Positions 980 to 5,973 of a stretch of DNA of 64,000 nt are shown one piece after another. Under the pieces are notes generated by a model. That model saw only the letters and a list, made by a program, of their open reading frames with translations, was not told the DNA's origin and made no database searches. The stretch is from Candidatus Latescibacterota bacterium (GTDB lineage Bacteria; Latescibacterota; UBA2968; UBA8231). The translations under genes and the position numbers were made by a program. The stretch spans positions 96,001 through 160,000 of the forward strand of contig CBDAOB010000005.1 in the NCBI GenBank assembly GCA_965197905.1, read 5' to 3'. Position 1 is the stretch's first letter. The number at the start of each line of letters is the position of its first letter.

Positions 980-2479
980 TCAAATCGCTGAGTGCAGCTT
1001 CCTCAGCGTCGGGTATAATTGCCTATACACGTCGAGTTGATCCCGGTAATGGGCGCTGCGTTTCTCGTCCGGCTCATAGCGCGCGCTGATCGAAACGGTA
1101 CGCGCTACCGCCTCCTCCAGCGAGGCGTAAATCCCGATTCCCCAGCCGGCGAGCAGCGCGGCGCCGAGGCTGGCGGCATCGCTGACACCGATGGCACTGA
1201 TCGGCGTTCCCACAATGTCCGCTTTCATCTGCAGCCATTTCGCTGATCGTGCGCCGCCACCGATCGCTCGCAGATCGTCGACCTCGATGCCAGCCGTCCG
1301 TAGCTGCTGGATGCTGAGCGCCTGCTCAAAGGTAATGCCCTCGAGCAGCGCTTTCACCAGATCTTGCCGGCGGGTGTCGAAGGTCAAGCCGAGGATTGCC
1401 CCCCTGGAGTTGGGATCGTTCTGCAGCGAGCCGCTCCCGGCAAAGTGGGGCAATATCATCAGTCCGCTCGGTTCGTCCCCGGCCTGATCGACGATAACGT
1501 CGTACACATCCCTTTGCTCGCGCTGGGCCACGGCCCGTTCCGCGGCACCCAGTTGATCGCGATACCAGCGCAGGAGCCGGCCGCCGGTCTGGTTGCCGGT
1601 CAGCGCGGCAAACATCTCGGGGACGACGTGGGGATAGCAGGGGACGTTGTCTTGCTCCAGCCGAGAGGTCGGTTCTTTGACCACCGCAGCGATCGATTCG
1701 GTGGTGCCGATGGCATACATCGCCTCACCGCGACCGAGCACCCCTGCACCCAGGGCCCCACACGGCTGATCGTGGCCGCCCACGACCACCTGTACTCCAG
1801 GCGGCAAACCTAGATCGAGGGCTATGGCGCGCGAGATCTCCCCGACCACGTAACCGCTGGGTCGCGCCATCGGCAGCTTTTCGCCGTCGACGCCGGCGGC
1901 GCCCAACAGCTCCTCCGACCAGCTCAACGAGCGGATATCGAAACCGAGCATGCGCGCCGCCATCGAATAATCGATGACCGGCTCCAACCCCAGGCGCTGC
2001 AAGGCGAAATCGCCGTAGCAGAGGAACTTCCAGGAGTCTCGGTAGAGTGCGGGTTCGTGCTCCTTCCACCAGGCGATCTTGGGGACGGAGAACTGACCGT
2101 GGACCGGTTGTCCGCTGATAGCGTAGATCTTCTCCGCGCCCAGACGCTCGCGCAGCCGGTCTGCCTGCTCGAGGGCGCGGTTGTCGGCGGTCACCGGACT
2201 GTTAGCCAGTACCTCCGACGTTTTGCTCACCGGAATGACGGCTTCCCCCTGAGCCGAAATCGCCAGGGCTTTTGCCGGATTGGCGGGGATGTTCGTGTTG
2301 ACTTCGCGGATACAATCGCACAGATGCGACCAGACCGCGTTCGGATCCAGCTCGAAGAACCCCGGCCGTGGATTCAGCAGTGGGTATTCGCGATAGGCAG
2401 TGACAAGAGGTTTGCCATCCGTGTCGAAGGCGATCGCCTTACACCCAGTGGTGCCGATATCCAGTCCCAGGAGGCTCAT
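980..2479 (-). CDS. FGGY-family carbohydrate kinase (xylulokinase-like)
   Basis: LGLDIGTTGCK, GGHDQ, GGGARS motifs. Confidence 0.9.
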   Translation of the reverse strand: MSLLGLDIGTTGCKAIAFDTDGKPLVTAYREYPLLNPRPGFFELDPNAVWSHLCDCIREVNTNIPANPAKALAISAQGEAVIPVSKTSEVLANSPVTADNRALEQADRLRERLGAEKIYAISGQPVHGQFSVPKIAWWKEHEPALYRDSWKFLCYGDFALQRLGLEPVIDYSMAARMLGFDIRSLSWSEELLGAAGVDGEKLPMARPSGYVVGEISRAIALDLGLPPGVQVVVGGHDQPCGALGAGVLGRGEAMYAIGTTESIAAVVKEPTSRLEQDNVPCYPHVVPEMFAALTGNQTGGRLLRWYRDQLGAAERAVAQREQRDVYDVIVDQAGDEPSGLMILPHFAGSGSLQNDPNSRGAILGLTFDTRRQDLVKALLEGITFEQALSIQQLRTAGIEVDDLRAIGGGARSAKWLQMKADIVGTPISAIGVSDAASLGAALLAGWGIGIYASLEEAVARTVSISARYEPDEKRSAHYRDQLDVYRQLYPTLRKLHSAI

Positions 2480-2503
2480 GCGCGTCCCGCGATCAGATGC
2501 GCG

Positions 2504-3142
2504 CTAGCCGACCAACATGCCGTGGAATTCTTCCGGAATCGTATGAGGTTTCCCATGCTGTAAGGCCAGGTGATAGACCTGCGCGGCCATCTCTACCACA
2601 ACGGTGCAGTGCATCGCTTCTGCCATGGAGTTTCCCACGGTCAGCATTCCATGATTCGCCCACACCACGGCATTCCTTCCCTCCATAACCTTGAGCATCT
2701 CGTAGCCAAACTCTCGTGATCCGCTGGGCAAATACGGCATGATGGGGACCTCGCCGCCCACATCGAGCAGAGCGTTCTGAAGCACCGGGGCTATCGGCAT
2801 ATGCAATACGCCAAAAACGTTGGCGTAGATCGGCTCAACGTGCACGATTGCCTGGACCTCCGGTCGTTTTTCGTAGACCGCGAGGTGTACCTGCGTTTCG
2901 TAGGAGGTTTTGCGTTTACCGTCGACTACACTTCCTTCCAGGTCCGTAGTCACCAGGTCTTCGATCGCTATCTGCTCGTAGGAGTAGTCGTGGGGCGTCA
3001 CCAGGATGTGACCGCTCTCCGGATCTCGGATGCTGAGATTCCCGTGTGTGAGCGGCACGAGGCCAAGTTTGGAAACCTGGACACCCGCCTCGATGAGTTC
3101 CCGCCCCAGTTGCATGAGTTTCTCGTTCGACATTTTGGTCAC
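2504..3142 (-). CDS. Class II aldolase/adducin-family protein
   Basis: GNLSIRD, H..VY..RP, AIVH, NHG metal ligands; GTG start at 3142 behind GAAGGAG. Confidence 0.88.
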   Translation of the reverse strand: MTKMSNEKLMQLGRELIEAGVQVSKLGLVPLTHGNLSIRDPESGHILVTPHDYSYEQIAIEDLVTTDLEGSVVDGKRKTSYETQVHLAVYEKRPEVQAIVHVEPIYANVFGVLHMPIAPVLQNALLDVGGEVPIMPYLPSGSREFGYEMLKVMEGRNAVVWANHGMLTVGNSMAEAMHCTVVVEMAAQVYHLALQHGKPHTIPEEFHGMLVG

Positions 3143-3293
3143 GGTTGCTCCTTCGGAGTGTTGTTCGAGATGCAGCACACGAATCGGAATGCGCGTATAA
3201 TAAGGACGGAGGGGGGCTGTATCAACGAAGGCGTCGGTCTCGGCGAGAGGTCATTACGAAAGCCTGCCGAGCCATTGCCATCACACAAGAAAA

Positions 3294-4598
3294 CTACGAG
3301 TCGCGCAGTGCTGTAAGCAGCTCCACGGAAGACTCGGTCATGCGCCGCCCGCTCTCCTTCGAGAGGCGGCAGGTGTGGACCGTCCTTTGGACCTCATACC
3401 CCCCCTGATCGAAGGCGCTTTCCGGACCCACATACCCGCAATATCCGTTGGTCAGCTCCGATACCAGCGTGACCGCGAAGGGCGAGCGTTCCTTGATCTC
3501 GATGCCGAATTCGACGAAGAGCTCCGCGGGATTGGTTACGATAGCAACATCCCCAAAGGAGATTCCCGTCAGCTCGATGGCGCAGGTCGTATCGCCACTG
3601 GCGATTATCGCAGCCTCTTCCGGATCGTATCGCTGCCGCTGCTGTGTCCTCATCTCTGCAGACGAGCTGCGGCAGTCATCTCTGCAAAAGGTGGAATCTG
3701 CCCAGGGCCGGTCGGGGTAGTTCTGCAAGGTGGATCGAATCACCACCCTGTCGACCGGTGAGGGCTGAGCTGCCCCAAAGGCGGCATGAATCCTCGTGGC
3801 CGTCGCTTCACCAATCAGCCGGGCGAGCTCATCGCCACGGTCGGGTCCACCGGGGGGGCCTTGCCAGATGGTGTCGGCGCAGGGAGCTTCCAAAAACGGC
3901 GTGACCAGATCTTCACCGTAGAGCTCGCGAAGGGCGTCGCCGATTCGACCACCGATGTCGGCGTGATAGATCCCACTGACGCAGTTGTTGTGACAGGCGT
4001 AGTTGACGACAACGGCGAAGGGTGTGCCATCGGTACTGGTGAAGGCCAAGAGCTGCATCTGCTCGTCGATCGGACCGGTGGCTGGATAACGGTCATCCGC
4101 ATTGTCGGCCCCCAACATTACCACAAGCCCGCTGGGCTGCAGCAGTCGCCGGTTTCGCTCATAACCGGGTGTAGGGCAGGTTGCCGGCCGTATCAACGCC
4201 GGCCGCATATGGTCGTTTGCCGCGTTTACAGCTGCGGCCGCCTGGTCAATCAAGACATCCACGAATGCACGATCAGGAAGGGCGCCGCTCAGAAAGGAAG
4301 GGCAAGATGCCGGTGCCGCGTGAGTGTGAGTGGCGCCAACCAGGATGTTGGAGCCGGGGACACCGGTTGTCTGCTCGCACTTGTCTCGGATGGCCAAGAG
4401 CAGTGTTCGGTCTGCGAAGGTCACATCTATGGAGACGACGGCGCCCGCCGTTTCTCCATCGTCGAATACGACGGCGTGACAACAGAGCGGGCTGGCACTA
4501 GCGTCAGGTTGGCAGAGACTGTCGTTGTAGTTGGGGAGGGGATGTTCGGGTGTTATGTCAGTCGTTGCGGCGCCGGCACGGAACTTTGCAGCAGGCAT
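3294..4598 (-). CDS. Neutral/alkaline ceramidase-like hydrolase
   Basis: ATHTHAAP, NYACH, ELFVEFG, NGYCGY, GGYE motifs. Confidence 0.8.
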   Translation of the reverse strand: MPAAKFRAGAATTDITPEHPLPNYNDSLCQPDASASPLCCHAVVFDDGETAGAVVSIDVTFADRTLLLAIRDKCEQTTGVPGSNILVGATHTHAAPASCPSFLSGALPDRAFVDVLIDQAAAAVNAANDHMRPALIRPATCPTPGYERNRRLLQPSGLVVMLGADNADDRYPATGPIDEQMQLLAFTSTDGTPFAVVVNYACHNNCVSGIYHADIGGRIGDALRELYGEDLVTPFLEAPCADTIWQGPPGGPDRGDELARLIGEATATRIHAAFGAAQPSPVDRVVIRSTLQNYPDRPWADSTFCRDDCRSSSAEMRTQQRQRYDPEEAAIIASGDTTCAIELTGISFGDVAIVTNPAELFVEFGIEIKERSPFAVTLVSELTNGYCGYVGPESAFDQGGYEVQRTVHTCRLSKESGRRMTESSVELLTALRDS

Positions 4599-4618
4599 GA
4601 AGTACGTGCTGTGGCGCG

Positions 4619-5533
4619 CTAACGCAGAAGGACCATCGAGCGCGTCGTGCGATGGCCTGGCGTGCTCAAATGATAGAAATAGACACCGGAAGAAACCGGG
4701 TGGCCTCCGTCGTCCCTTCCATCCCAGGTCAATTCGAACGTGCCGGGACCGAATCGACCTGCGGTGAGCAGGTGCACGGAGCGACCGGCGGCATCGAAGA
4801 TGGTTATGGTCAGATCCGTCTCCGCCCCAAGGCGGAAACCGATACTGGTTTCGGAGTTGAAGGGGTTGGGATAGCTGGCTAGCAGCGCGAAGTGTTCGGG
4901 AAGGGATTCCTGTTCGTCGATCGAGGTTGCGGAACCTTCACCAGTATTCTGCGACTCCGCGAGGGCTTTGAGGGACTCGTTGATGACTCGGCGTACGATG
5001 GGCCGACTGAACGTCTGATTGGTGATGTAACGCACTACTCCTTCATGGTCCAAGACCACATAACTGGTCTTACCCAGACCGTACTGGCGCCCGATTTTGC
5101 TGGCGCGCATGAGCAGGGGATACGTAGTCCCGGTCTGCTCGCCAAACTGGCGTTTGACTTGGGACGGGTCACCGTCCCACACGTCGAGACCTAGGGTGAT
5201 AAACGATTCGTTCTTGAATTCTTGATGTACCGCTTCAACGTCCGGCGCCGCCGCACGACAGTAAGGTCAGTTGTAGCCGAAGAAGTTCAGCAGGACCACC
5301 TTGCCTCTGAACGCCCTCAACGTTACGAGATCTCCGTTTGTTTGACGGAGTTCGAAATCGGGGGCGGGTTCCCCCACTTTCGCCGACCCAAGGACGTCGC
5401 CCGCAATGGTGAGGGCTGCAGTAAGCAGCACTGCGAAGTGTTTCCAGACAATGCGATCACAGATCAAGGAGAATACCCTTATACGCTGGAGGGTGGATCT
5501 TTTAAACATAGAAATGCAGAACAGAGATTCCAA
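4619..5533 (-). CDS. Exported AhpC/TSA-TlpA-type redoxin with UxxC (Sec) active site and C-terminal FlgD/T9SS-like sorting domain
   Basis: ORFs 5267-5533 and 4619-5182 are in frame across a single TGA (5267-5269): ...KVVLLNFFGYN-U-PYCRAAAPDVE...; hydrophobic signal before VGEPAPDF; YPNPFN/WDGRD/SGVYFY tail; exact start uncertain. Confidence 0.8.
5228..5263 (-). promoter_or_regulatory. Candidate bacterial SECIS hairpin
   Basis: UACUGU/GCGGUA, CGU/ACG and CGGC/GCCG stems with a GGC apical loop starting 17 nt after the UGA (folded by eye). Confidence 0.55.
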
Positions 5534-5571
5534 TATATATGGTTGCGTAAGATGGCGCAGCGGTGGTGTCC

Positions 5572-5973
5572 CTACGCGTCACCGACGACGTGGACGTGAA
5601 CCATGCGCGCCCGGGGACCGTCGAACTCGCACAAATAGATGCCCTGCCACCGACCCAGAACCAAAGTACCCTCCTCGACTATCACAGTTATACTGTGACC
5701 GATGATGCTGGTGCGTGCGTGGGCGGCGGAGTTGCCCTCGTTGTGCTGGTAGTAGGGTTGCACCCACGGCACCATCCGTTCCAAATCGGCCAGCATGTCG
5801 CGACGAACCGTCGGATCGGCATTCTCGTTGATCGTGATACCCGCCGTTGTGTGGGGGACATAGACGATGACATGGCCGCTCTCGACCTCGCTGCGGGCGA
5901 CCACTGCTTCGACCTCAGAAGTAATCTCGTGCAATTCCTGATGTGCGTGAGTCTGGATGCCAAGCGAGATCAT
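5572..5973 (-). CDS. yjbQ: YjbQ/UPF0047 family protein
   Basis: PHTTAGITINE, HNEGNSAAH, LGRWQGIYLCEFDGPR. Confidence 0.92.
   Translation of the reverse strand: MISLGIQTHAHQELHEITSEVEAVVARSEVESGHVIVYVPHTTAGITINENADPTVRRDMLADLERMVPWVQPYYQHNEGNSAAHARTSIIGHSITVIVEEGTLVLGRWQGIYLCEFDGPRARMVHVHVVGDA

Follow-up and report, generated by a model that had tools for sequence, protein, structure and literature searches.

Whether the TGA that separates two ORFs of one frame ends a gene here, or is read as selenocysteine (Sec) inside a longer one, is the question raised by this locus. The window (the whole stretch of 64,000 nucleotides that was analysed) comes from a Candidatus Latescibacterota genome of 6.69 Mb that is 91% complete. 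The earlier note had described two same-frame ORFs split by one TGA at the first Cys of a redoxin CxxC motif, with the frame open through it, and this description was borne out. The ORFs lie on the minus strand at 5533-5267 and 5182-4619, the TGA (5269-5267) gives FFGYN-U-PYC, and translation with TGA as U runs for 304 residues and needs only one recoding, at U89. The plus-strand reading of the region was rejected, as it contains stops and no motif. The start codon is likely TTG 5467 and not 5533, because TTG 5467 is kept in a syntenic same-genus orthologue (L162) that lacks the ATG at 5509. The expectation that automated annotation would split the gene proved correct: the databases hold only its post-TGA fragment (P0002), and close relatives in protein databases are post-TGA fragments only. 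The best named full-length relatives belong to Ca. Latescibacterota (L082, P0019, and P0123). In the gene neighbourhood (window 980-5973, minus strand), yjbQ lies on one side and same-strand genes for a ceramidase-like hydrolase, a class II aldolase, and an FGGY kinase lie on the other; this gene order around the Sec redoxin is preserved in G002, a genome of the same genus.

Table 1. Coordinates of the predicted Sec redoxin gene, its parts, and related genes (G000, the source genome; positions without a contig are those of the window)
Feature	Coordinates	Strand	Remarks
Full read-through gene	4619..5467	-	282 codons and a TAG stop; likely TTG start; open frame up to TTG 5533
Predicted Sec/SPI signal peptide	5387..5467	-	Basic n-region and hydrophobic core; no lipobox; predicted cleavage before SAKVG
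Thioredoxin-fold redoxin domain (AhpC-TSA/Redoxin), ResA-like fold	4946..5386	-	Pfam E 4e-18; AF2; Foldseek
In-frame TGA, predicted selenocysteine	5267..5269	-	First residue of UPYC, with the resolving Cys encoded at 5260-5258
Bacterial SECIS-type hairpin	5239..5257	-	Loop GGC at 5249-5247; conservation and fit to the bSECIS model
C-terminal Ig-like sorting domain (YPNPFN ... SMVLLR), type-A T9SS CTD / FlgD_ig-like	4622..4873	-	TIGR04183, FlgD_ig, AF2 beta-sandwich
Paralogues L024 and L025	G000 C3:435945-436760; C5:758318-759133		Same architecture; UDFC, UHFC; each with a perfect SECIS-type hairpin
Five more genes of the thioredoxin fold whose motif includes an in-frame TGA	G000 C5:1123737+, C5:434954+, C4:1271625-, C4:453304-, C3:749097-
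Three tandem AYUP genes, likely selenoproteins	G000 C4:1987494-1988918	-
FPUGADQ gene, likely selenoprotein	G000 C3:588373	-
PF13557 barrels with a C-terminal extension ending CCRIQ, then TlpA with ASWUGxC	L231:3183-4124; L232:1352-2260

The Sec machinery, which the earlier note had proposed to look for, was found in the genome: SelA (556 bits), SelB (330), SelD (345), and a tRNA-Sec with TCA were all above cut-off. The SelD gene itself has an in-frame TGA with a G-led loop at +18, the same position as in the Sec redoxin. Extraction of homologues gave 36 genes, reduced to 35 loci when one duplicate was dropped. In their alignment, the motif codon was TGA in 34 of the 35 loci and TGC in one, and the TGA-carrying loci were at 30-73% identity. 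In 70 relatives with Cys, that residue occupies exactly the position of the TGA. Of 61 related genomes, 42 contained matches to a profile of the redoxin domain, 70 in all, and 68 of these matches have a TGA; 12 additional ones that were inspected had it at the motif. SelA was found in 41 of the 42 genomes that have the redoxin. Contigs from two studies, one of which may be the source, span the TGA without difference, and contigs of diverged strains from four sequencing runs showed no difference at the TGA or in 5232-5261.

A hairpin with a G-led loop, said in the earlier note to begin 17 nt downstream, is present, but it is the loop (GGC) and not the hairpin that begins after 17 nt. Its arms occupy +10..+17 and +21..+28 after the UGA and form a 4+3 bp stem with one G-G mismatch (-9.7 kcal/mol). 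The bSECIS model, as set out in the accessible part of its source, has a loop of 3-9 nt with G in its two initial positions, 16-37 nt from the UGA, an upper stem of 4-16 bp, and an MFE <= -7.5 (PMC13188914), and this hairpin agrees with it. Compared with shuffles of this GC-rich DNA, the stability of the hairpin was not significant (z 0.14 to 1.07); its significance comes from conservation. Across 25 distinct rows, the 6-pair stem was 88% paired with both-side changes at three of the six pairs, far above slid controls, and the hairpin register of the window itself showed compensatory changes in 7 rows, affecting 4 of its 8 pairs; the sequences tested also served to derive these structures, and relatedness of the rows inflates the shuffle test. 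Synonymous choice was fixed where the stem requires it, with GCG used for Ala +5 in 23/23 and for Ala +8 in 18/20. A crude SECIS rule was passed by 31 of the 35 homologues versus 1485 of 36593 background TGAs (4.1%). Machinery, TGA conservation, SECIS covariation, and independent contigs together support the Sec enzyme with read-through that the earlier note had proposed. The gene is almost certainly one conserved frame with Sec read-through at the TGA, and is very likely a real, conserved, and mis-annotated selenoprotein gene.

The genome holds three Sec paralogues with the sorting tail. In the five further thioredoxin-fold genes with a TGA at the motif (Table 1), the motifs are TGGU (BCP-like), WASWURCR, SWUPPC, KWUGYC, and a deiodinase-like FTUPYC. 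Genome-wide scans for selenoproteins by motif, by the crude SECIS rule, and by dicodon score gave too much noise for a full count, and the candidates given are family-recognisable ones only. Among the other tail-bearing genes in the genome, inspection of 35 short-frame rows gave no convincing upstream Sec. In G002 (L053, L162, and L164), four copies of the redoxin were seen; a TAG lies two codons ahead of the TGA in one of them, and two are frameshifted, through decay or assembly error.

The Pfam AhpC-TSA/Redoxin match covers residues 52-176, with AhpC-TSA as the best match, and spans the TGA. The AlphaFold (AF2) model, built from a 24-row alignment, showed two well-folded domains and a loose linker, with a mean pLDDT of 89 and per-block values of 86-98 over residues 1-150. 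Foldseek matched the first domain to ResA (rmsd 1.7 over about 135 residues), and the closest solved folds were ResA and other periplasmic reductases. The domain has the trait of the TlpA/ResA/CcmG proteins, namely a thioredoxin fold with a redoxin insertion and a CxxC-type motif. The alignment showed neither the cis-Pro loop of TlpA/ResA nor their Trp ahead of the motif, whereas its WATWC rows keep both, and the scores for the ResA (54.6, cut-off 170) and TlpA (32.4, cut-off 230) models were too low for assignment. The peroxiredoxin PxxxT/SxxC(U) motif was also absent, with FFGYNUPYC instead, and the BCP model scored 29.3 (cut-off 140). Given the lack of the Trp, the cis-Pro, and the peroxiredoxin motif, the enzyme would work in a redoxin-like manner and belong to neither the TlpA/ResA nor the peroxiredoxin family. 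The NCBIfam Sec redoxin models likewise remained below cut-off (NF041054, 28.6/300; NF040769, 22.1/120; NF053656, 13.8/100; NF038285, 28.4/250), and the Omp28 domain PF11551 was not among the Pfam matches at E <= 0.01 (NF033782, E 0.075). In a 56-row tree with a midpoint root, the family formed one clade of 39 rows (support 100/99), separate from the WATWC TlpA/ResA proteins, and Cys forms were interspersed among the Sec forms. On a long branch inside the WATW clade of this tree lies L083, which combines propeller-like repeats with WATWUPVC and the tail in one long protein; it may be a second origin of the Sec-plus-tail form. Compared with ResA/TlpA/CcmG (1SU9 and 3C71; 2LS5 from Bacteroides), the protein is alike in fold and in predicted export from the cytoplasm, and differs in having no WC motif and no cis-Pro, in its separate clade, and in a cleavable signal and a tail where the others have a membrane anchor.

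The signal peptide and sorting tail proposed in the earlier note are supported by the sequence. From TTG 5467, the predicted signal comprises 27 residues with a hydropathy peak of 2.6, and the signal peptides of the homologues end at the same place. At the very end of the protein, TIGR04183 (type-A T9SS sorting) matched residues 221-300 with 30.8 bits (cut-off 23) and FlgD_ig matched residues 227-286 with 40.3 (Pfam), and PF18962 was below its cut-off (24.9, cut-off 27). The full-length FlgD model NF005176 scored 29.3 (cut-off 230), which does not identify a flagellar hook cap. In structure comparison of the tail (model pLDDT 65), the PorU CTD reached Z 7.6 (rmsd 3.2, 96 aligned), and FlgD and the RemA CTD each reached 7.2; the fold is a generic Ig sandwich, and these three were tied with generic Ig folds. 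In Foldseek, FlgD gave the best E-values, and the PorU CTD had the top query TM-score (0.65) among the matches listed. The genome contains 105 tail matches, 85 of them C-terminal, on diverse long proteins, and 73 of these 85 end in R or K. Across the 35 loci, 19 tails were intact, 7 proteins had an EF-hand/dockerin-like end, 3 had a short SWG tail, and 6 were interrupted, these labels being assigned partly by eye. One homologue of 640 residues (L065, in G016) carries a beta-lactamase-like domain (serine hydrolase, by eye) between the Sec redoxin and the tail.

According to the accessible text of two sources, the signal peptide of T9SS cargo is used first and the CTD second (PMC5445135), sequence conservation among CTDs is poor, and further FCB phyla may have the T9SS (PMC11285876). 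In this genome, SprA, the PorU sortase, and several PorV/PorQ proteins were above cut-off, with PorU beside PorV; PorU itself and an M6-type cargo adjoining PorV bear related tails. SprA was above cut-off in all 61 related genomes. GldL and GldN gave no match in this genome or in G002, whereas both were matched in the Bacteroidales control G062, so that the canonical motor and ring seem absent, although divergent forms could be missed. GldM gave no match in the genome and none in the controls either. The sprA gene lies about 7 kb from selA (G000 C2:401858-415540), with lptF/lptG and fliG between them, and many genomes of the family show the two genes linked in this way; this is probably housekeeping synteny, and the region contains housekeeping genes with no motor candidates among them. 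On this sequence evidence, T9SS export of the Sec redoxin to the cell surface is reasonably probable; surface export is likely and would depend on a T9SS without known core parts. Read-through and T9SS export, taken together, are probable.

The note had considered the domain combination unusual. With Cys, it is common, since the best 150 library matches contained 70 full-length Cys clusters of signal, redoxin, and tail, together with 16 fragments; it is the Sec version that is undescribed. As far as its accessible text goes, PMC13188914 (Table 1) catalogues UxxC redoxin selenoproteins as a Prx-like thiol:disulfide oxidoreductase (PF00578) and a Redoxin family (PF08534), as well as thiol-disulfide isomerase-like and UGC-TlpA (cd02966) proteins. 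It has no entry there with a T9SS/FlgD tail, and that text mentions neither secretion, the periplasm, signal peptides, nor FlgD. In the accessible part of PMC2907840, HBP35 of Porphyromonas gingivalis is a Cys thioredoxin displayed through its CTD, with thioredoxin activity in vitro and hemin binding, and the role of its surface thioredoxin domain is given as unknown. Compared by description, HBP35 and the present protein share a thioredoxin motif and a C-terminal domain; HBP35 is carried to the cell surface and export is predicted here. They differ in that HBP35 has CxxC and binds hemin, whereas the Sec redoxin has UxxC and no Omp28 Pfam match. A term search of the accessible text of a T9SS review (PMC11205867) found no mention of redox cargo, and the literature search found nothing joining a selenoprotein with the T9SS, or Latescibacter- with the T9SS. 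The Sec-plus-tail form was not found in it either, and subscription papers and supplements may list such proteins. UxxC redoxin selenoproteins and a Cys thioredoxin as T9SS cargo (HBP35) are thus known, and the Sec version with a tail appears new and undescribed.

The recurring neighbours of the homologues are a signal-bearing, tail-less TlpA (WAT[WY]CKPC) and a DUF6029 outer-membrane barrel, which lie within 1.5 kb of each other in 26 of 30 loci. The only invariant cysteines of the barrel form a CxxxxC near its C-terminus, present in 28 of the 30 loci, with the other two cut or interrupted. Among 61 genomes, 38 have barrel and redoxin, 4 have redoxin only, none has barrel only, and 19 have neither; related genomes do not count as independent, and neighbouring genes are lost jointly from fragmentary assemblies. 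Five genera contain both presence and absence states, with barrel and redoxin in step. The two genes lie within 1.5 kb in 20 of the 38 genomes and apart in 18, including this one, where TlpA and barrel stand together at C5:1068468-1070547. Here the barrel is separated by 968 kb from the window gene, which stands among the unrelated yjbQ, hydrolase, and sugar-kinase genes, and by 310 kb from the nearest paralogue. In this genus, three redoxin paralogues stand away from the single TlpA-barrel pair. The gene directly upstream of that pair (L187:4890-6455, plus strand; G000 C5:1066889-1068454), at the place where relatives have the Sec redoxin, encodes a protein with a T9SS tail in which an EF-hand/dockerin-like repeat and cohesin-like segments were recognised by eye.

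A Calditrichaceae genome has an Omp28-TlpA-DUF6029 cluster with the same barrel Cys pair, and its Omp28 protein gave no solved relative by sequence. DUF6029 was found in one of the five outside FCB genomes searched. In G038 and G042, which are without DUF6029, an unrelated PF13557 barrel takes the same slot after the Sec redoxins and is followed by a Sec-TlpA (Table 1). The source genome contains the DsbD transmembrane domain (DsbD_TM). For DUF6029, polysaccharide export has been proposed in the accessible part of PMC9603273. The gene context tentatively suggests a thiol relay from DsbD through TlpA and the barrel Cys pair to the surface redoxin. A possible broader reading, to which we give somewhat less than even weight, is an undescribed thiol-to-selenol relay across the outer membrane with a T9SS that lacks the known motor and with this enzyme as the outer end. 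As part of the same reading, the components might be interchangeable, with a Sec redoxin or Omp28 outside and DUF6029 CxxxxC or a PF13557 Cys-Cys tail in the membrane. DsbD/CcdA thiol relays cross the inner membrane and porin-cytochrome conduits cross the outer membrane, and they feed extracytoplasmic redox proteins. The proposed module would differ from both in a Cys pair within a beta-barrel and a selenol acceptor, and no system with these two parts was found in the searches made.

In the proposed mechanism, SelB would read the hairpin and insert Sec at the UGA, and the Sec pathway would export the protein, with cleavage of the signal peptide. SprA-PorV would then recognise the tail and PorU would cleave it, so that the enzyme would end up on the outer membrane or beyond it. 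Its selenolate could there attack a disulfide or other oxidised sulfur in a substrate at the surface or outside, with resolution by the Cys that lies three residues further on. Judging from gene context, electrons would most likely come from a DsbD-type inner-membrane protein and pass through periplasmic TlpA (CKPC) and the DUF6029 Cys pair to the redoxin.

A true stop at the TGA, reflecting a pseudogene, a sequencing error, or two separate genes, would accommodate the disabled copies in G002 and a hairpin that alone is not unusually stable. However, the identical TGA in 34 of 35 loci of 30-73% identity and in other studies' contigs, its placement at the exact Cys position of the 70 Cys relatives, the covarying SECIS, and the full machinery have largely refuted this reading, which we consider highly improbable. 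The protein could also be a real selenoprotein that stays in the periplasm, its tail serving as a docking or Ig module, and act as a TlpA/ResA-like enzyme reduced directly by DsbD or TlpA. The failure to detect GldL/GldN, the FlgD matches as best Foldseek E-values of the tail, the periplasmic reductases as closest solved folds, and the replacement of the tail in 10 of 35 loci are consistent with a periplasmic enzyme. Against it stand SprA, PorV, and the PorU sortase, the related tails on PorU and on the M6-type cargo next to PorV, the 85 C-terminal tail copies on diverse long proteins, and the PorU CTD with the top query TM-score among the matches listed; we regard a periplasmic location as unlikely.

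Export may also be real and the activity different, the selenoenzyme being a peroxidase or a sacrificial oxidant scavenger that is re-reduced by small thiols, with the barrel linked to it otherwise (e.g. through substrate or as a transporter). The family is without the Trp and cis-Pro that the WATWC rows keep, its best Pfam match is AhpC-TSA, and the barrel cysteines could be a structural disulfide, all of which would suit such an enzyme. Yet the PxxxT/SxxC motif is absent, and three surface redoxin types and two unrelated Cys-pair barrels recur beside a TlpA, which makes a peroxidase or scavenger rather doubtful.

If the reading of a Sec redoxin exported by the T9SS is true, the outer face of a Gram-negative cell would bear a selenoenzyme and the T9SS would have a cargo with Sec. 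The phylum is an uncultured one, and databases conceal the gene as a 'hypothetical' or 'FlgD-like' fragment. The finding would also point to T9SS function in the absence of any GldL/GldN that can be recognised. The gene context would offer DUF6029 a redox role, and it provides a testable answer to the question raised by HBP35, namely from where a surface thioredoxin may obtain its electrons.
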